This document shows positions 4,692 through 43,856 of a DNA stretch of 64,000 nucleotides, in pieces. Origin of the DNA: Candidatus Dojkabacteria bacterium (lineage in GTDB: Bacteria > Patescibacteriota > Dojkabacteria > JAHIVN01). The DNA is taken from the NCBI GenBank assembly GCA_016932045.1, contig JAFGDO010000010.1, positions 1,759 through 65,758 on the forward strand, read 5' to 3'. How positions within the stretch are numbered: position 1 is the first letter of the stretch; each line of letters opens with the position of its first letter. The notes beneath the pieces were generated by a model. It searched no databases. It was not told the DNA's origin and saw only the letters and a program-made list of their open reading frames with translations. Made by a program: the position numbers and the translations under genes.

Positions 4692-6626
4692 ATGAACTCT
4701 CTTGAAATCAAGAAAAAATTTATAGAATTCTTTAGATCAAAAGGGCATAAAGAAATCCCGAATGTGCCATTAATTCCCGAAAACGATCCAACATCGCTTT
4801 TCATCATGGCCGGTATGCAGCCCCTTTCGCCATATTTTGGAGGAGAACCGCATCCTACAGGCGATAAACTTGTTAATATACAAAGATGTGTCCGAACAGA
4901 TGATATTGAAGAAGTAGGTGATACTATTCATCAAACTTTCTTTGAGATGTTAGGCTATTGGTCACTTGGAGCATATTTCAAGAAAGAGGCCATCGAAATG
5001 TCTTTTGAATTTTATACTTCACAAGAGTGGCTCGGATTAGATCCAGAAAGAATTTATGCTACGGTATTTGAAGGCGATAATGATGCTCCACGCGATGAAG
5101 AAGCAATAGAGATCTGGAAAAAAATCTTTAAAAATGTTGGTATAAGAGCTGAAGTTTATGACAAAAAGAAAAAAGACAATAGTTCCGCAAGAATTTTCCC
5201 GTTAAATAAAAAAGAGAATTGGTGGGGACCAGTAGGAGAAAGTGGTCCCTGCGGTCCTGATAGCGAATTTTTCTATTGGAGGGGGAAAGACAAACCTGAC
5301 TTTTCAGAATTTGTTCCTTATGACAATTCAAATATGTTTATTGAAATAGGAAACGATGTTTTCATGGCATATAATAAAACTAAGGAAGGAAAATACGAAC
5401 CTTTAAAGCAGAAGAATATTGATTTTGGCGGAGGAATGGAACGAATAGCTTTAGTCTGTACGCTAAGAGAAAAGGACGGTTCAGTTCCGTATAATTTCAC
5501 TAATTTTAATACAGATTTATTTGATACGCCTCTCTCGTATCTTCGAAGCCTTGTTGAAGATGAAAGCAGAAAGTCCACAAGAGAAGAGAATGAAGATGCA
5601 GAAAATATTACAGAATTTGATCTTACACTAACTGATTTCAACAACCCCAGCCAGGCTGTTAAGGCTTTCAGAGTTATTCTTGATCACACAAGAGCTTGTA
5701 CTTTCCTTGTCGCAGATGGTATCGAGCCGTCAAACAAAGATCAGGGCTATATACTTCGAAGACTGTTGAGAAGATCAGTAAGACACGCAAAGTTAATAGG
5801 CATAGAGGGCACCTTTACCAAAGATATTGCTAAACTTTACATTGATAAATACAAGATCCAATATCCTCATCTTGCTGATATGCAGAACAAAATTCTGAAT
5901 ATCTTAGAGAAGGAAGAGATAAATTTTGAGAATTCAATAAAAATCGGTGCCAAAGAAATAGATAAACTTGAAGCAAGCGGGAAAAAGATTACCGGAAAAG
6001 ATCTTTTTAATATCTTCGAGACCTATGGCTTTCCAATTGAAATGGCATTAGATGAGTTAGGCATAGAGAAGGACGAATTACGAATGAAATATCAGAGGGA
6101 ATTTGATAAGGCAAAGGAGAAGCATCAAGAACTATCAAGAAAAGGATCTAAAGGAAAATTCAAGGGGGGATTAGCCGATTCCTCTGAAATTACAAAGCGG
6201 TATCATACCGCAACACATCTTTTACTTCGTGCTTTACAGGAAGTTCTTGGAGATCATGTACATCAACGAGGCAGTAACATAACAGAGGAAAGATTAAGAT
6301 TCGACTTCTCTCAAAGTGAACAATTAACAGATGAGCAGAAAAAAGAAGTTGAGAGACTTGTAAATGATAAGATAAAGGCAGGATTAAAGGTTCTAAAAAA
6401 GGTGATGCCGAAAGAGGAGGCTCTAAAAATCGGAGCTGAATGTGAATTTCCAGAAAAGTATCCCGATCAGGTTTCAATTTACGAGGTTGAAGGCTTCACA
6501 AAAGAATTCTGTGGAGGGCCTCATGTTGAAAACACCAAAGAACTTGCAAAGTCCGGCAAATTTAGGATAATAAAGGAAGAGAGTGTTGGGAGTGGAGTGA
6601 GAAGGATAAAGGCAGTATTACAATGA
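4692..6626 (+). CDS. alaS: Alanine--tRNA ligase, short form without the C-terminal C-Ala domain.
   Basis: An N-terminal class II AlaRS core (FIEFFRSKGH...FIMAGMQP...IQRCVRTDDIEEVGDT..HQTFFEMLGYWSLGAYFK) and an editing-domain HxxxH motif (HTATHLLLRALQ, CGGPHV). The protein is 644 aa, against about 870 for typical AlaRS. Confidence 0.9.
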   Translation: MNSLEIKKKFIEFFRSKGHKEIPNVPLIPENDPTSLFIMAGMQPLSPYFGGEPHPTGDKLVNIQRCVRTDDIEEVGDTIHQTFFEMLGYWSLGAYFKKEAIEMSFEFYTSQEWLGLDPERIYATVFEGDNDAPRDEEAIEIWKKIFKNVGIRAEVYDKKKKDNSSARIFPLNKKENWWGPVGESGPCGPDSEFFYWRGKDKPDFSEFVPYDNSNMFIEIGNDVFMAYNKTKEGKYEPLKQKNIDFGGGMERIALVCTLREKDGSVPYNFTNFNTDLFDTPLSYLRSLVEDESRKSTREENEDAENITEFDLTLTDFNNPSQAVKAFRVILDHTRACTFLVADGIEPSNKDQGYILRRLLRRSVRHAKLIGIEGTFTKDIAKLYIDKYKIQYPHLADMQNKILNILEKEEINFENSIKIGAKEIDKLEASGKKITGKDLFNIFETYGFPIEMALDELGIEKDELRMKYQREFDKAKEKHQELSRKGSKGKFKGGLADSSEITKRYHTATHLLLRALQEVLGDHVHQRGSNITEERLRFDFSQSEQLTDEQKKEVERLVNDKIKAGLKVLKKVMPKEEALKIGAECEFPEKYPDQVSIYEVEGFTKEFCGGPHVENTKELAKSGKFRIIKEESVGSGVRRIKAVLQ

Positions 6627-13676: not shown

Positions 13677-14429
13677 TCATACCTTTTGCATCCTCCCCTC
13701 AACAGGTTTCAAAAGCTTCTCTCTATGATACTTCGTATTTCGCAAATTAGTCCCAATTCCAAGATATATCTTGTGTCCACCTATTCTTTCAAGAAGCCCC
13801 ATACCTAGAACAACGCCATAATCACGTATATCAAACTTCCATTTGAGAAAATTTTTGTCAAGATATTTTGTAGCAGATTTGTTAAGCTCATCAAAAGACA
13901 AATTGGTATCTATATCTATCTGGAAATGAGGGATCCATTCATCAGAGTAGCCTTTACCAAACTCAGATAATACTATCTCAAATAAAGGGGACTCCCACTT
14001 GACTTTGTCACCTATGAAAAACCATCTCGAGGTTTTGTTACCAGAATCTTCTTCAAAAATTTCCACATCGGCATTTTCAGCAATTCTTTTATAATAAGCC
14101 ACTTCCTTTTCAATAAAATTACATGAATAACTTACTCCTAGATGATTTAATCTTACTATTTGAGGGCGCATATTCCTGATAAATTCTTTAAAACTAGACA
14201 AAAGGGAAATATCTCTCATTCCTTGCTTCTTTGTCTTCATTTTTGAAGTTATTTCTTTACCAAGAATGCTAACTTTTTCTCCGACTACCTGGGCCAGCTC
14301 TCCAGTTTTTAGCCTTAGAGAGCAACTGGCACCCTCTACTAATAAACTCTTTGTTTCTAAATCATCTGAGAGTATTTGAAGGTACATACATACTTTACTT
14401 AAATAAGACATACCCCGCAAATCCTTCAT
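13677..14429 (-). CDS. Hypothetical protein, weakly VOC/glyoxalase-like.
   Basis: A 250-aa ORF. The RLNHLGVSY segment resembles the start of a VOC domain, with no firm assignment. Confidence 0.45.
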   Translation of the reverse strand: MKDLRGMSYLSKVCMYLQILSDDLETKSLLVEGASCSLRLKTGELAQVVGEKVSILGKEITSKMKTKKQGMRDISLLSSFKEFIRNMRPQIVRLNHLGVSYSCNFIEKEVAYYKRIAENADVEIFEEDSGNKTSRWFFIGDKVKWESPLFEIVLSEFGKGYSDEWIPHFQIDIDTNLSFDELNKSATKYLDKNFLKWKFDIRDYGVVLGMGLLERIGGHKIYLGIGTNLRNTKYHREKLLKPVEGRMQKV

Positions 14430-33816: not shown

Positions 33817-33890
33817 GGGCGGTTAGCTCAGTTGGTTAGAGCATTCGCTTGACGTGCGAAAGGTCACAAGTTCGAATCTTGTACCGCCCA
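33817..33890 (+). tRNA. tRNA-Val (anticodon GAC). The 3' CCA is not encoded.
   Basis: A cloverleaf with acceptor GGGCGGT/ACCGCCC, D-arm AGCTCAGTTGGTTAGAGC, anticodon stem TTCGC/GCGAA with loop TTGACGT, and T-arm with GTTCGAATC. It is flanked by the inverted repeat GAAAAGAACA / TGTTCTTTTC. Confidence 0.85.
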
Positions 33891-39846: not shown

Positions 39847-40698
39847 ATGACAAAGAAAAAGACAATAGAGATTGGACCTGCATTAAAGTACTTCTTTCAA
39901 CTTCCTGACTGGAAGATGAGAACCGTATGGGTTGGAGGAGTCCCCTTGCTTGTAATTACGCTGATATTTCTTGAAGCTTTCTTCATATTCTTTTCATACA
40001 TAGGGCTGTTAATATGCACTATTTTTATGTCAGTTACACTAGTACTCCTCTTTATCTACAATTTAAATCTAAATGGGTATAAGTATGAACTAATTAAAGC
40101 TATATCTGAAGGGAAAGACTCTTCTAAAATAGCGCTTCCAAATTCGTTCTCTTCTCAAAGGATAAAAACAGGACTTGTGTTTTTTATAAGTAATTTTATC
40201 TATTCTTTGCCAGCTCTGATCTTGTATGTTCTTACAATGTGTCTCTTCTTTATCCCCATTTTAGTCCTGGATTCTGGGCAGATGAGTGAAGCAATGACTG
40301 ATGACACAGCTTGGACAACAGGAGACACGATAATATTCTTTGGAATAATCATTTCTTTTATTCCGGCAGGGATTGCACAGATTTACATGATGATACAACA
40401 ATTCTTCCTGCAACCCGCCTGTTACCGGCAATTCATTGTAAACAAAGATATTTCCGCCTTTTTTAGTTTTAAGGAGATTTTCAAATTCATCAAGCAAAAT
40501 ATTGTAAATATGTTCCTTTACCTTGGTATATTCTGGGGAGTAATCTTTATCCTAAACTTTGTAAATTCTTTCCTTTCACTGACCATTTTTATTTGTATAG
40601 GCATTATAATCTATCCGATTTTTATAGCCGTCTACAGCGCATACTTCCATCACCTGCAGGCATATATGATTGGGGAAATTATCAGATTGAGCAAGTAA
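39847..40698 (+). CDS. Polytopic membrane protein, hypothetical.
   Basis: Six or more hydrophobic helices and no recognisable motif. Confidence 0.5.
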   Translation: MTKKKTIEIGPALKYFFQLPDWKMRTVWVGGVPLLVITLIFLEAFFIFFSYIGLLICTIFMSVTLVLLFIYNLNLNGYKYELIKAISEGKDSSKIALPNSFSSQRIKTGLVFFISNFIYSLPALILYVLTMCLFFIPILVLDSGQMSEAMTDDTAWTTGDTIIFFGIIISFIPAGIAQIYMMIQQFFLQPACYRQFIVNKDISAFFSFKEIFKFIKQNIVNMFLYLGIFWGVIFILNFVNSFLSLTIFICIGIIIYPIFIAVYSAYFHHLQAYMIGEIIRLSK

Positions 40699-40964
40699 TA
40701 CTTTGATCTAAACAATCTAGGAGATCTAGTGATCAAAAAAGGTCGATTGGATCGTATAGATCGATTTAATCGACTTAATCATCGATCATCTGAATAGATA
40801 AACAGTAATGTTGTTAAAATTGATAGGCTCGAATAGCGATTAGCAAGAAGCGAAGAATTGTCGTATGGTTGTATAGCTGGAGGCTGAAAGCTTATAGCTA
40901 AAAGCTAAAAAGCTAACAGCCAATAGTTATGAGATATTGGATCATTTCAACCGTTTGACTTCCG

Positions 40965-41207
40965 GATTCATTGCGAATATAATTCTTATCGACAGTGAGG
41001 AAGAGGTCTAGTGAGACTCTTCCATTTTTCAAAATTACCATAAAACTGAATATTCCACATAAAGAGTGCTCAGCTTGCATTGCTGAGAAATAAGAGTGGA
41101 ACCACGGTTTATCCTGCCTGCGATGAGCAAAGTAGAATAAAGCTTGTCGAAGGAAAATTCCGCCTCTAAACATTAATATTATTAGTGTTTAAAGGCGGGA
41201 TTTTTTT
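40965..41207 (+). promoter_or_regulatory. Candidate T-box riboswitch leader for thrS, with an ACC (Thr) specifier.
   Basis: A T-box-like motif AGAGUGGAACCACGG at 41093-41107 (consensus AGGGUGGNACCGCGG). An antiterminator can form as AGAG[UGGAACC]ACGG paired with CCGCCUCU, and the latter is the 5' arm of the downstream terminator hairpin 41159-41199 followed by U7. Upstream there is a Stem-I-like long hairpin whose distal loop contains AGUGA, and ACC-A at 41037-41040 sits on its 3' side. Confidence 0.5.
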
Positions 41208-41407
41208 AGTATAGTCATACTGTTAAACAACTTCACAACTAGAGGTCTATGTTTAGGATTAATAAATAGAAATATGTTGTTTATGCAAAATATTACTATA
41301 GAAATGAATACAAACTCTACAGCATCTAGAACTACAACCCCCTAGGGGGTAACATTTATATTCCTAATTTTATAATTTTTCATTTTACATTTTTAGTTTT
41401 TCTTAAC

Positions 41408-43171
41408 ATGGCACAAAAAAATGAACAATCCAAAAAAGTATCTGAGATAGAAAGGATGCGGCACAGTTTTGCGCATATACTTGCCCATGCTGTTATGCAT
41501 TTATTTCCAGAGGCCAAGCTTGGTATAGGACCGGCTATTGAAAACGGATTTTACTATGATTTTGACCTTCCAAAGCAACTTACTCCAGAAGATCTACCAA
41601 AGATAGAAAAAGAGATGAAAAAACTTATTGCTGAAGAATTACCTTTTCAGCAATTAAATCTCAACAGAGATGAAGCTATGGACATGCTGCTTCAGCAGGG
41701 ACAACTATACAAAACTGAGCTACTGAATGAAATTCCTGATGAGGAAGTCAGTTTCTACAGAACTGGGAATGAATTTATGGATATGTGCAGAGGTCCTCAT
41801 GTTGAGCATACAGGACAGCTGGGGGCATTTAAACTTATGAGTGTAGCCGGAGCTTATTGGAGAGGGGATGAGAAGAGACCACAAATGCAGCGTATTTATG
41901 GTGTAGCATTTAAAACTGAGCAGGAACTGAAAAAACATCTTGAGAACCTAAAAGAATTAAAGAATCGCGACCACAGAAAGCTTGGAAAAGAGCTGGATCT
42001 ATTCTTAATTGATGAAACTGTCGGACAAGGGCTAGTTATGTGGTTACCCAAGGGATCTCAAATAAGAAAAATCATCGAGGACTTTGAGTATAAAGAGAGA
42101 ATTAAATTAGGGTATGAACCTGTTTATACTCCACATATAGGTAGTCTAAAATTATTTAAAGAATCAGGACATTGGCAGCATTACCGTGACTCAATGTACG
42201 CACCAATCGAAATAGATAAGGAAAAATACCTTCTTAAGCCCATGAATTGTCCTTTCCATGCCAAGATTTACTCAAGAAAAATTCGAAGTTATCGTGATCT
42301 TCCAATAAAGTACTGCGAATATGGAACTGTATATAGATATGAGAAGTCTGGAGAACTATCTGGACTGACTCGTGTAAGAGGATTTACTCAAGATGATGCT
42401 CATATCTATTTCCGTGAAGACCAAACGAAAGAGCTTGTCATAGAAACAATCCAAGCAACAATAAGACTGATAACTGCATTCGGCTTTGATAACTATCGTG
42501 TAAGGCTATCTTTAAGAGACCAAAAAGATAAAGAAAAATTCATAGATAAACCAGAAGCTTGGGCAAAAGCAGAAAAAGGACTGAGAGACGCACTTAAAGA
42601 AATGGAAGTAGATTATATAGAGGAAATAGGAGAGGCGGCCTTTTACGGGCCTAAAGTTGATTTTCTTGTGAAAGATGCATTGGGAAGAGAAGAGCAGTGT
42701 GGCACAGTACAACTTGATTTCAATGTCCCTGAAAGATTTAAGTTAACCTATATTGACGAGAATGGAAAGGAACAGCAGCCTGTTATGATTCACTGGGCAC
42801 CGCTCGGTTCATTTGAGCGTTTCTTCTCGCGAATTATAGAGCACTATGGTGGAGCATTTCCTGCTTGGTTATCACCATTACAGGCAAGAATTATCCCGAT
42901 TTCCAAAAAGTTTAACAACTACGCGAAAATAGTAAAGGAGGAACTTGATAAAAGAGATATTCGCTCCGCTATTGATGAGAGGGATGAGACACTGCAAGCT
43001 AAGATACGAGATTCAGAAATGGATAAGATTCCTTATATGTTGGTCATAGGGAAAAAGGAACAAGCAAATAAAGCTGTTGCTGTAAGACCAAGAACTGGAG
43101 CAGACTTGGGAATGATGAAACTCGATGAATTCATTGAACGGATAGAGGAGGAAATCCAAGCAAAAAAATAG
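41408..43171 (+). CDS. thrS: Threonine--tRNA ligase, short form lacking the N-terminal TGS domain.
   Basis: It starts at the second additional domain's HxxxH motif (HSFAHILAHAV). Class II motifs are present (FRTGNEFMDMCRGPHV, YGTVYRYEKSGELSGLTRVRGFTQDDAHIY) along with a C-terminal anticodon-binding domain. Confidence 0.9.
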   Translation: MAQKNEQSKKVSEIERMRHSFAHILAHAVMHLFPEAKLGIGPAIENGFYYDFDLPKQLTPEDLPKIEKEMKKLIAEELPFQQLNLNRDEAMDMLLQQGQLYKTELLNEIPDEEVSFYRTGNEFMDMCRGPHVEHTGQLGAFKLMSVAGAYWRGDEKRPQMQRIYGVAFKTEQELKKHLENLKELKNRDHRKLGKELDLFLIDETVGQGLVMWLPKGSQIRKIIEDFEYKERIKLGYEPVYTPHIGSLKLFKESGHWQHYRDSMYAPIEIDKEKYLLKPMNCPFHAKIYSRKIRSYRDLPIKYCEYGTVYRYEKSGELSGLTRVRGFTQDDAHIYFREDQTKELVIETIQATIRLITAFGFDNYRVRLSLRDQKDKEKFIDKPEAWAKAEKGLRDALKEMEVDYIEEIGEAAFYGPKVDFLVKDALGREEQCGTVQLDFNVPERFKLTYIDENGKEQQPVMIHWAPLGSFERFFSRIIEHYGGAFPAWLSPLQARIIPISKKFNNYAKIVKEELDKRDIRSAIDERDETLQAKIRDSEMDKIPYMLVIGKKEQANKAVAVRPRTGADLGMMKLDEFIERIEEEIQAKK

Positions 43172-43295
43172 TAACAAAATCTTTTAAAATATAAGTAAAA
43201 ATTCTAGATTCTCTACTTTTATTGAAAAAGGGTTGATATTCTGTGTGAATTTGCTATTATTAGCCTAATACTTTTTAATTTTTATACAAACTACA

Positions 43296-43856
43296 ATAGC
43301 ATATCCAAAACAGTCGCGTCCTAAGATTCCTTTTTACAGAAGGAATGATTACATTCGAATTTCTCCAATTCGATTAATTGACGAGAAAGGGAATAACCTC
43401 GGAGAGGTAGAAACACCCAAAGCACTAGAAATGGCTCGAGAAAAAGGACTCGATCTTATCGAGGTCGCTCCAAGTGTCAGGCCGCCTGTGTGCAAAATTC
43501 TTTCTTGGTCAAAATTTAAATATGACTTATCCAAGAAACAACGCTCATCCTCTAAGGGAAAAGCAAAAGAGATGAAGGAAATGTGGTTTTCTCCATATAT
43601 TGGAGAGGGAGATATCAATCATAAACTAAAAAGGGTAGAAGAATTTTTATCCAAGAAGCATCCCGTCAAGCTTACAATTCGTGTCAGGGGCAGAGTACAC
43701 AACGAAGTTGTGACTGCACAACTCGAAAAGATTCTTGGATTACTCGAAGGGAAATTTGAGACAGAAGAAAAACCAAGAAGAGAGGGGAGAAATCTTTCAA
43801 TAATCATATTTCCACCCAAGAAAATTTCAAAAACTGACGATAAAGAAAAGAAATAG
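43296..43856 (+). CDS. infC: Translation initiation factor IF-3 with a probable non-AUG (ATA/ATT) start. The ORF track gives only the C-terminal 141 aa from an internal ATG at 43431.
   Basis: The frame is open upstream of 43431 back to a TAA at 43275. It encodes an IF3 N-domain (..RRNDYIRISPIRLIDEKGNNLGEVETPKALEMAREKGLDLIEVAPSVRPPVCKI..) with no ATG/GTG/TTG, and the candidate starts are ATA at 43296 or ATT at 43326. Confidence 0.8.
   Translation: MAYPKQSRPKIPFYRRNDYIRISPIRLIDEKGNNLGEVETPKALEMAREKGLDLIEVAPSVRPPVCKILSWSKFKYDLSKKQRSSSKGKAKEMKEMWFSPYIGEGDINHKLKRVEEFLSKKHPVKLTIRVRGRVHNEVVTAQLEKILGLLEGKFETEEKPRREGRNLSIIIFPPKKISKTDDKEKK

Follow-up and report, generated by a model that had tools for sequence, protein, structure and literature searches.

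A candidate threonine-specific T-box riboswitch with a reduced Stem I in the thrS leader of a Candidatus Dojkabacteria bacterium

We analyzed a 64,000-nucleotide (nt) stretch of DNA from Candidatus Dojkabacteria bacterium (contig JAFGDO010000010.1), hereafter the window, in which a long gap precedes thrS, the gene for threonyl-tRNA synthetase (ThrRS). An earlier reading of this DNA, made from the letters alone (the sequence-only reading), had proposed a T-box riboswitch with a threonine (Thr) specifier in a gap of about 700 nt; the measured gap was 709 nt. Our computational follow-up indicated that positions 40990-41207 very probably form a Thr-specific T-box riboswitch, which would control thrS by transcription attenuation. 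The locus was arranged as follows.

39847-40698, + strand: gene for a DUF4013 membrane protein, the upstream flank of the gap
40699-41407: intergenic region before thrS, 709 nt
41408-43171, + strand: thrS, the gene proposed to be regulated, encoding 587 amino acids (aa) with the Pfam domains tRNA_SAD, tRNA-synt_2b, and HGTP_anticodon

An NCBI protein from Candidatus Dojkabacteria bacterium, named threonine--tRNA ligase, matched the thrS product at 100% identity. The next gene after thrS was infC, and the G+C content of the window was 36.6%.

Orthologous loci were then collected. Species-representative genomes contained no ThrRS nearer than ~51% identity, and a large protein collection yielded ~25 ThrRS relatives at 59-83% identity. 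Thirteen further thrS loci (one metagenome contig, L081, and eleven contig look-ups) comprised 12 of Dojkabacteria type and the more distant L079. The same element, with the same parts in the same order, was found directly upstream of thrS in 10 further Dojkabacteria-type loci, whose ThrRS were 59-82% identical to that of the window; in L166, the upstream sequence was too short to judge its presence. The genes upstream of the leader varied, including a deaminase, an opposite-strand TPR protein, a nitroreductase, DUF4013, and ClpP with tRNA-Val, indicating that the element is linked to thrS rather than to the gene before it. The gap from the leader to the thrS ATG ranged from 10 to 245 nt across loci.

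The leader of the window was self-contained, with its own predicted promoter and a strong terminator, and the T-box parts followed one another in canonical order on the strand of thrS. These parts, in which A1 and A2 denote the two antiterminator helices, were as follows.

40955-40983, + strand: predicted promoter, with a −35 hexamer TTGACT (40955-40960), a 17-nt spacer, and a −10 hexamer TATAAT (40978-40983), matching 11 of 12 consensus positions
40992-40999, + strand: 5′-terminal ACAGUGAG, corresponding to the 'AG bulge' (AGNGA) of Stem I and reading ACAG(U/A/C/G)GAG in 11/11 leaders
40999-41023, + strand: P1, the distal Stem I hairpin, with GGAAGAG (40999-41005) and CUCUUCC (41017-41023) forming 7 base pairs (bp) under an 11-nt apical loop, GUCUAGUGAGA
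41024-41036, + strand: linker from P1 to the specifier, 13 nt, unpaired and A/U-rich
41037-41040, + strand: specifier ACC (a Thr codon) and the purine A, within a conserved UU-ACC-A
41041-41068, + strand: conserved A-rich post-codon segment containing AAAACUGAAUAUUCC and ending in AAAGAGUG directly 5′ of Stem III, set by codon-anchored alignment
41069-41087, + strand: Stem III, with CUCAGC, the loop UUGCAUU, and GCUGAG, aligned as Stem III by the Rfam T-box model RF00230
41093-41107, + strand: T-box core AGAGUGGAACCACGG, with the A1 5′ strand AGAG, the 7-nt bulge UGGAACC, and the A2 5′ strand ACGG
41108-41159, + strand: antiterminator-loop insertion, 52 nt, with its own hairpin at 41117-41153
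41160-41167, + strand: shared strand CCGC-CUCU (CCGCCUCU), which serves both as the 3′ strand of A2 and A1 and as the terminator's 5′ arm
41154-41207, + strand: intrinsic terminator, a ~23-bp hairpin (core 41160-41198, extended 41154-41204) followed by A and U7 (41201-41207)

The sensor half was examined across the 11 leaders. The region 40985-41210 folded with a minimum free energy (MFE) of −74.8 kcal/mol, at z = −6.7 relative to shuffled sequence. At the 5′ end, RF00230 aligned ACAGUGAG to its consensus acAGAGAg with high posterior probability; the canonical AG-bulge motif is AGCGA or AGAGA, with a variable third base (PMC11404447). The distal hairpin that the sequence-only reading had proposed, with GGAAGAG and CUCUUCC enclosing AGUGA in the loop, was present at 40999-41023. 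P1 folded in 11/11 leaders with 5-7 bp and, in most of them, an apical loop of 11-14 nt carrying the conserved motif (A)GUGA(A/G)A, and both-sided changes were observed in four of the six scored pairs. This loop motif resembles the canonical T-box apical loop, which has 12 nt with conserved G, U, G, and A (PMC11404447). As a test of a tRNA elbow platform at the level of sequence, both the AGNGA and GUGA(A/G)A motifs were conserved on a covarying 5-7-bp helix, with AGNGA forming a 5′ tail rather than a bulge.

The linker from P1 to the codon measured 10-16 nt in nine leaders, and L167 and L169 carried extra inserted hairpins there. The ACC-A at 41037-41040, assigned earlier as the Thr specifier, was likewise found, and its orthologs varied only among Thr codons: ACC in nine leaders and ACU in L163. 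In L169, where the linker is rearranged, the specifier was either ACG, followed by A, or an ACC-G 5 nt downstream, and it is probably ACG. Under the codon-anchored alignment, an A followed the assigned codon in 11/11 leaders, which for L169 holds only with the ACG reading. The codon was unpaired in nine of ten single-sequence folds. The confinement of variation to Thr codons indicates, at the sequence level, that the specifier behaves as a codon would. Only 21 nt separated it from the AAAGAGUG motif, and the AAAG(A)GUG at the end of the A-rich segment matched the RF00230 consensus ..aaAGuG before Stem III. A hairpin at the position of Stem III was observed in 10/11 leaders, with unrelated sequences and a purine-rich spacer of 3-6 nt before A1; MAFFT could not set the register here, and Stem III was judged one sequence at a time.

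Next, the 5′ end of the leader was considered. The hexamers TTGAC(N) and TATAAT were the sole conserved sequence upstream of the RNA in the 11 loci. Their spacer was 17 nt across the leaders and 18 nt in L172; L169 had a weaker −35 (TTGCTT), and L171 had an extended −10, TGCTATAAT. The distance from the promoter end to CAGNGAG (ACAGNGAG) was 7-9 nt, or 14 nt in L167. Transcription of the leader is thus predicted to start at about 40990-40992. Such a promoter position would put the RNA 5′ end 1-3 nt before ACAGNGAG, leaving no room for the 5′ strand of a proximal Stem I. The sequence-only reading had drawn the base of a long Stem I hairpin from GAAUAU (40975-40980) and AUAUUC (41051-41056). Both hexamers were present, but GAAUAU overlapped with the conserved −10 box and no ortholog kept the pairing, and this base was therefore rejected.

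The switch half was almost invariant at its core. The T-box-like motif that had been noted at 41093-41107 was confirmed as AGAGUGGAACCACGG, and the 11 leaders read AGAGUGGAACC(A/G)CG(G/A); AGAGUGGAACCACG (41093-41106) matched 11 of the 13 specified positions of the conserved 14-nt T-box sequence AGGGUGGNACCGCG. The flanks of the motif had been expected to pair with CCGCCUCU and to leave a 7-nt bulge. As observed, AGAG/CUCU and CGG/CCG paired around UGGAACC, with one A.C mismatch, A41104 opposite C41163. The consensus of the shared strand in the leaders was (C/U)CG(U/C)CUC(U/A), which is the start of the terminator. The terminator alone folded at −25.6 kcal/mol in the window, and the terminators of 11/11 leaders ranged from −20 to −27 kcal/mol, ended in a U-run, and reused the antiterminator 3′ strand. 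Hence the hairpin followed by U7, and its mutual exclusion with the antiterminator, both held up: CCGCCUCU was common to the two structures and covaried in the orthologs. In the window, the terminator fold reached −41.5 kcal/mol compared to −22.0 kcal/mol for the enforced antiterminator, and these modelled energies would fit a ligand-dependent switch. The antiterminator loop was short, at 6-15 nt, in nine orthologs; L081 and the window had longer loops of 44 and 52 nt, respectively.

Covariation was scored in an alignment of eight leaders (A2). The pairs of P1 and the antiterminator were 93.7% paired, compared to 42-57% when the 3′ partners were slid by 1-3 columns; helix A1 was 100% and helix A2 96.9% paired. 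Both-sided changes were found in six of the 14 P1 and antiterminator pairs, a count reached in 0/500 column shuffles. Double changes included ACGA/UCGU in A2 of L171, compared to ACGG/CCGU elsewhere, and UUGAG/CUCAA in A1 of L081, compared to AGAG/CUCU. In an alignment of the 11 leaders, compensatory changes were observed in 12 of the 18 consensus pairs of the terminator. The covariation was thus consistent over four separate helices. An earlier whole-leader MAFFT alignment (A1 in our numbering of alignments) placed L168 and L169 incorrectly and displaced the specifier of L163 and L164, and it was excluded from the statistics. A covariance model built from the eight leaders (R1) recovered the three leaders left out of the model, at E = 1.6e-7, 6.6e-6, and 1.4e-4. 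It hit exactly one site in the window, and it weakly detected the Bacillus thrS T-box cores and a leader upstream of pheS in locus L170. At other thrS loci of the Candidate Phyla Radiation (CPR), namely those of Saccharibacteria (L002-L004, L015, L039) and L079 of Dojkabacteria, neither the Rfam gathering score nor R1 revealed a T-box. From these loci, the element appears restricted to a single clade of Dojkabacteria.

The pheS leader of L170 (13775-14045, + strand, with pheS at 14102) served as a control for specificity. RF00230 scored it at 51.3 bits (E 1.6e-10). It read UUGAAUUCG, with the Phe codon UUC in UUC-G, and UAGGUGGUACCGCGG, with the bulge UGGU. UGGU fits the A73 discriminator of bacterial tRNA-Phe. 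Thus, UUC with UGGU in pheS and ACC with UGGA in the thrS leaders of one lineage indicate that both the triplet and the variable bulge base follow the amino acid, as a T-box mechanism would demand. By analogy, UGGA predicts U73 for tRNA-Thr, as is implied for Bacillus by its thrS T-box. No T-box core was found upstream of pheS in L166 and L171, which were read directly, or in L167 and L168, which were covered by a motif scan.

An RF00230 scan had been named in the sequence-only reading as its check, with the lack of a hit above threshold to count against it. The gathering score of RF00230 was 93 bits in the Rfam release used, and a gathering-threshold scan of the whole window returned a sole match, tRNA-Val at 33817-33890, and no T-box. 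With permissive filters, RF00230 aligned 40958-41122 at 15.1 bits (E = 0.69 for 801 nt and 0.16 for 181 nt). Formally, therefore, the check failed on its score, and what stood was a weak alignment in canonical order: the 7-bp helix and its loop fell on the distal helix and apical loop, AAAUUACCA at the specifier position, and 41069-41087 on Stem III, with Stem II deleted, followed by the T-box core. The same cutoff was applied to two control loci, L037:2492-2739 and L018:2488-2722. The leader of Bacillus spizizenii thrS, which is closely related to the experimentally studied leader of B. subtilis, scored 85.1 bits (E 6e-19) and also fell below 93, and that of Halalkalibacterium halodurans thrS scored 107.6 bits, above the cutoff. 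A failed cutoff is therefore not a valid refutation, since it also rejects a Bacillus thrS T-box, and the gathering threshold was abandoned as a decisive yes/no test; scans that use the threshold alone miss genuine T-boxes even in Bacilli.

Two orthologs with short antiterminator loops were then scored, and RF00230 was the top or only Rfam match in both: 30.2 bits (E 2.6e-5) in L172 and 39.4 bits (E 1.1e-7) in L165. In these leaders, Stem III, the T-box core, and both antiterminator helices were aligned at high posterior probability. The low score of the window was mainly because RF00230 could not bridge the 52-nt insertion and paired the core with a nearby surrogate instead. Other weak Rfam matches (SAR11_0636, PyrD leader, SpF03, and miRNA and snoRNA models over the terminator) were far below their thresholds and were set aside as chance. 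The match to the SAR11_0636 small-RNA model (25.2 bits compared to a gathering score of 67) arose from short imperfect AGCU(A)AAA repeats (..GCUGAAAGCUUAUAGCUAAAAGCUAAAAAGCUAACAGCC..) at 40867-40925, upstream of the leader promoter.

The leader differed from canonical T-boxes in its 5′ domain. A proximal Stem I strand, a kink-turn (K-turn; GA motif), a closed specifier loop, Stem II, and the IIA/B element were all absent, and RF00230 deleted or poorly filled the Stem II and IIA/B positions in the window, L172, and L165. A search for a partner strand, run independently of the start-site inference and judged by pair counts and positional consistency, covered the sequence between the end of P1 and a point 12 nt beyond the codon. 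In nine simple leaders, the best partners in the upstream 60 nt reached only −1.6 to −6.6 kcal/mol at inconsistent sites; in the Bacillus leader, this search found the genuine Stem I pairing, at −18.4 kcal/mol and with 27 correctly placed pairs. For detecting a hidden strand, z-scores of duplex energy relative to mononucleotide-shuffled sequence were uninformative, as the Bacillus positive control itself gave z = 0.5 and −0.3. A local codon-presenting hairpin, as in the ultrashort Stem I of Actinobacteria, was rejected since RNAalifold gave no consensus pairs around the codon. Stem I thus seems to be reduced to its distal portion, beginning at the AG motif, which here forms a 5′ tail; the 3′ half corresponds to a standard T-box discriminator domain. 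That this reduced Stem I is real and functional as described we rate, from the sequence, at an even to somewhat better than even chance.

Taken together, the anatomy with its conservation and covariation, a 3′ domain homologous to RF00230, and a specifier that behaves as a Thr codon supported by computation a Thr T-box leader upstream of thrS. The central claim of the sequence-only reading was thereby upheld: the 11 leaders covary in every helix, their specifiers are Thr codons only, two of them match RF00230 significantly, and the pheS leader switches both codon and bulge. By its sensor and switch features, the element is classed on sequence grounds as a T-box, and as a structural variant since the proximal Stem I, the K-turn, and Stem II are absent. 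Beyond this, we infer that it binds tRNA, where its RNA begins, in which direction it regulates, and that P1 serves as an elbow platform. RNA synthesis would start ~7 nt past the −10 box. By default, the nascent leader would fold into the terminator (41154-41207), and the polymerase would halt ~200 nt before thrS. When uncharged tRNA-Thr accumulates, its anticodon GGU would pair with ACC (41037-41039), and its elbow would stack on a platform made of the 5′-terminal AGUGA motif and the apical loop of P1; the single strand of 10-16 nt could, we suggest, span the distance from anticodon to elbow. The free 3′ end of the tRNA (NCCA) would then pair with UGGA in the bulge (41097-41100). This would stabilize the weak antiterminator (AGAG/CUCU and CGG/CCG) and keep CCGCCUCU from the terminator, allowing read-through into thrS. 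Charged tRNA-Thr would be unable to fill the bulge, and termination would prevail.

Several observations weigh against this T-box assignment. In addition to the score of 15.1 bits, the window carries the A.C mismatch in A2 (ACGG/CCGC), a pair that is A-U or G.U in the other leaders, and the 52-nt insertion in the antiterminator loop. The leader start site was placed from the promoter consensus, and promoter-like sites in the single sequence numbered 4 compared to 4.0 expected from shuffles. The covariation sample consisted of 11 related sequences, with limited power, and the shuffle control ignores phylogeny. The leader is not essential, as L170 (65% ThrRS identity), with a gap of 32 nt, and the more distant L079 (52% ThrRS identity) have thrS without it. 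Neither the window nor the 1.36 Mb of fetched sequence (172 loci) yielded a tRNA-Thr gene, so the GGU anticodon and U73 remain predicted; this search of the window and the 172 loci returned no tRNA-Thr or tRNA-Phe and only 13 tRNA-Val and one tRNA-Gly. In the literature, no experimentally validated transcriptional T-box lacking the K-turn, the S-turn, or the closed specifier loop was found. A review stresses the geometric need for the K-turn, and it poses T-box function without a K-turn as an open question (PMC7583486).

The mismatch and the insertion bear most directly on whether the copy in the window is a decaying, non-functional relic of a T-box, in which antitermination is disabled, a partial terminator acts constitutively, and thrS is expressed by read-through or from a promoter-like site downstream. 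Such a site, with a match of 10/12, lies at 41349-41376 between the terminator and thrS, and the MFE fold of the nascent RNA paired part of the UGGAA bulge with UUCCG; promoter-like sites, however, occur at chance rate in this AT-rich DNA. Every conserved motif was intact in the window, namely AGUGA, the motif of the apical loop, UU-ACC-A, AAAGAGUG, the core, and the terminator. Moreover, the closest relative, L081, has a 44-nt insertion in the same loop, indicating that an insertion has been tolerated across speciation, and the inserted segment of the window forms its own hairpin and leaves a compact junction. Functional staphylococcal glyS T-boxes are reported to carry lineage-specific insertions in the antiterminator domain (PMC9177973). 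Therefore, we regard decay of the window copy as unlikely.

We consider it more unlikely still that the leader is an independent small RNA, or another cis-regulatory leader such as a protein- or metabolite-binding attenuator, with a T-box likeness that is convergent or partial. The promoter and strong terminator would release a discrete RNA of ~215 nt; the distance to the thrS ATG varies, as given above, from 10 to 245 nt, several canonical features of Stem I are missing from the 5′ domain, and RF00230 stayed below its gathering score. Yet the element always lies directly before thrS on the same strand, although the upstream neighbors differ, and the significance of the RF00230 matches in L172 and L165 is not explained by such a leader. 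Nor are the 14-nt core, the 7-nt bulge, and the shared strand, all of which are present and covarying, a triplet that varies only among Thr codons, and a pheS leader in which codon and bulge base switch.

A 23-codon open reading frame (ORF; MLFMQNITIEMNTNSTASRTTTP*) was observed at 41274-41345 (+ strand), between the terminator and thrS. It ends ACU ACA ACC CCC UAG, that is, in Thr-Thr-Thr-Pro-stop, with the stop codon serving as the loop of a CCCCC-UAG-GGGGG hairpin (41338-41353). In L162, positions 5890-5952 encode MLKNRIITTNILRTTTTP*, with the same ending and hairpin; in L163, the hairpin is kept and the ORF through it is less Thr-rich, and the other eight leaders have neither. The chance of three consecutive Thr codons in a random 23-codon frame of this composition was ~0.003. 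The ORF could be a Thr-codon leader peptide that acts as a second sensor, or a coincidence in shared DNA.

Such a peptide would be central if thrS were controlled by Thr-rich leader-peptide attenuation, or else by a translational operator of the Escherichia coli type, in which ThrRS binds tRNA-Thr-like hairpins at the ribosome-binding site, with the T-box features being secondary. However, the Thr-rich ORF occurs in only two of the 11 loci (three counting L163), downstream of the terminator, and no Thr-rich ORF was found within 40990-41207, that is, before the terminator. The region 41208-41425 folded no better than shuffles (z = −0.7), and its sole stable hairpin has a loop of 3-4 nt, lacks a Thr anticodon, and occurs in three of the 11 loci. 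Since the conserved T-box core would also be left unexplained, control of this kind is highly improbable. Finally, the idea that the conserved sequence reflects a minus-strand protein gene (ORF 40913..41173, 86 aa, called as a gene on the source contig by one gene caller) is scarcely credible, and the sequence-only reading had rightly suspected that ORF of being spurious: it has no Pfam match and no conserved frame in the orthologs, the minus-strand frames over the leader vary in position and length between loci and reach at most 49 codons in L162, L165, L168, and L172, and substitutions preserve the base pairs of the + strand RNA.

The thrS T-box of the Bacillus subtilis type (transcriptional, class I) is the closest counterpart of the Dojkabacteria T-box leader. 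The two share the gene, the logic, the ACC specifier with its purine, an identical UGGAACCACG bulge region, Stem III with purine flanks, the strand common to antiterminator and terminator, and the AG and apical-loop motifs; the B. spizizenii leader has the ACC specifier and AAGGGUGGAACCACGA, sharing UGGAACCACG with the window. In contrast, the Bacillus leaders have a full Stem I of ~100 nt, a K-turn, a closed specifier loop, and Stem II with the IIA/B pseudoknot, and scored 85-108 bits compared to 15-39 bits. Glycyl T-boxes of the glyQS type similarly lack Stem II and IIA/B and consist of Stem I, a linker, Stem III, and an antiterminator with the bulge UGGA; unlike the Dojkabacteria leader, which is Thr-specific, they keep a complete Stem I with a K-turn, an S-turn specifier loop, and a hinge (PMC11404447, PMC7583486). 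The translational ileS T-boxes of Actinobacteria, with an intermediate or 'ultrashort' Stem I, are likewise natural Stem I truncations outside Firmicutes. They have lost the distal platform, present the specifier in a structured loop, and depend on Stem II (PMC7583486). The Dojkabacteria leader would be the opposite, keeping a putative distal platform and losing the proximal part and Stem II, with an intrinsic terminator as its output. The L170 pheS T-box, of the same lineage, has AAGCGAG followed by a hairpin whose loop carries AGUGA; 14 nt then lead to the codon, and Stem III, the core, and the terminator are present. It differs from the thrS leaders in its UUC specifier, its UGGU bulge, a 5′ tail of ~14 nt, and the retention of Stem II and IIA/B, which accounts for its higher score.

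Other features of the neighborhood were also recorded. In the window (33817-33890, + strand) and in seven related loci (L162, L163, L164, L165, L168, L170, and L171), a tRNA-Val(GAC) gene precedes thrS at a distance of at most a few kb; a ClpP gene and a small ORF usually precede the tRNA gene, and this gene order is conserved in the clade. No other type of tRNA was found close to thrS. Immediately past the DUF4013 stop codon and upstream of the leader promoter, six GATC sites occur within 80 nt (40705-40784), together with repeated TCGAT/GATCG-like words. Nowhere else in the window, where GATC averages 0.39 per 100 nt, are these sites so dense. Downstream of thrS, 54 open codons precede the first ATG (43431) in the infC frame. 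This region (43269-43433, + strand) encodes the conserved N-terminus of initiation factor 3 (IF3; IRISPIRLIDEKGNNLGEV), and ATT and ATA are the sole start codons on offer there, for example at 43296 and 43326. Because only these are available where the IF3 N-terminus is encoded, the infC start codon is probably non-canonical, as in many bacteria, and the listed 141-aa ORF is truncated.

T-boxes are known mainly from Firmicutes, with some in Actinobacteria, Chloroflexi, and Deinococcus-Thermus and a few in Proteobacteria (PMC2494555). The text of a large T-box database names no CPR (PMC7778990), and our literature search found no report of a T-box in CPR/Patescibacteria or Dojkabacteria. The leader described here would thus extend the class to an uncultured CPR lineage with reduced genomes, one that the curated Rfam threshold misses. 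We see an even chance that the Dojkabacteria use a minimized transcriptional T-box in which Stem I is the elbow platform only, built from a 5′-terminal AGNGA tail and a hairpin of 6-7 bp, and the codon lies on a flexible strand of 10-16 nt, with the K-turn, S-turn, closed specifier loop, and Stem II all missing, and to which, in the sub-clade of the window, a leader peptide may add a second Thr sensor. If true, decoding and aminoacylation sensing would be achieved with about half of the canonical scaffold, through a reduction that is the converse of the one in Actinobacteria. T-boxes serve as a prominent model of how RNAs recognize one another and have been proposed as targets for antibiotics, and the leader offers a natural test case for a T-box without a K-turn and for how much of Stem I is needed, a question raised in PMC7583486. 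Should the leader function in the proposed way, it would define a smaller functional core, of use in structural studies and in engineering compact tRNA sensors. Furthermore, with a covariance model specific to the lineage, such leaders could be recovered from metagenomes, and aminoacyl-tRNA synthetase regulation in CPR could be better annotated.

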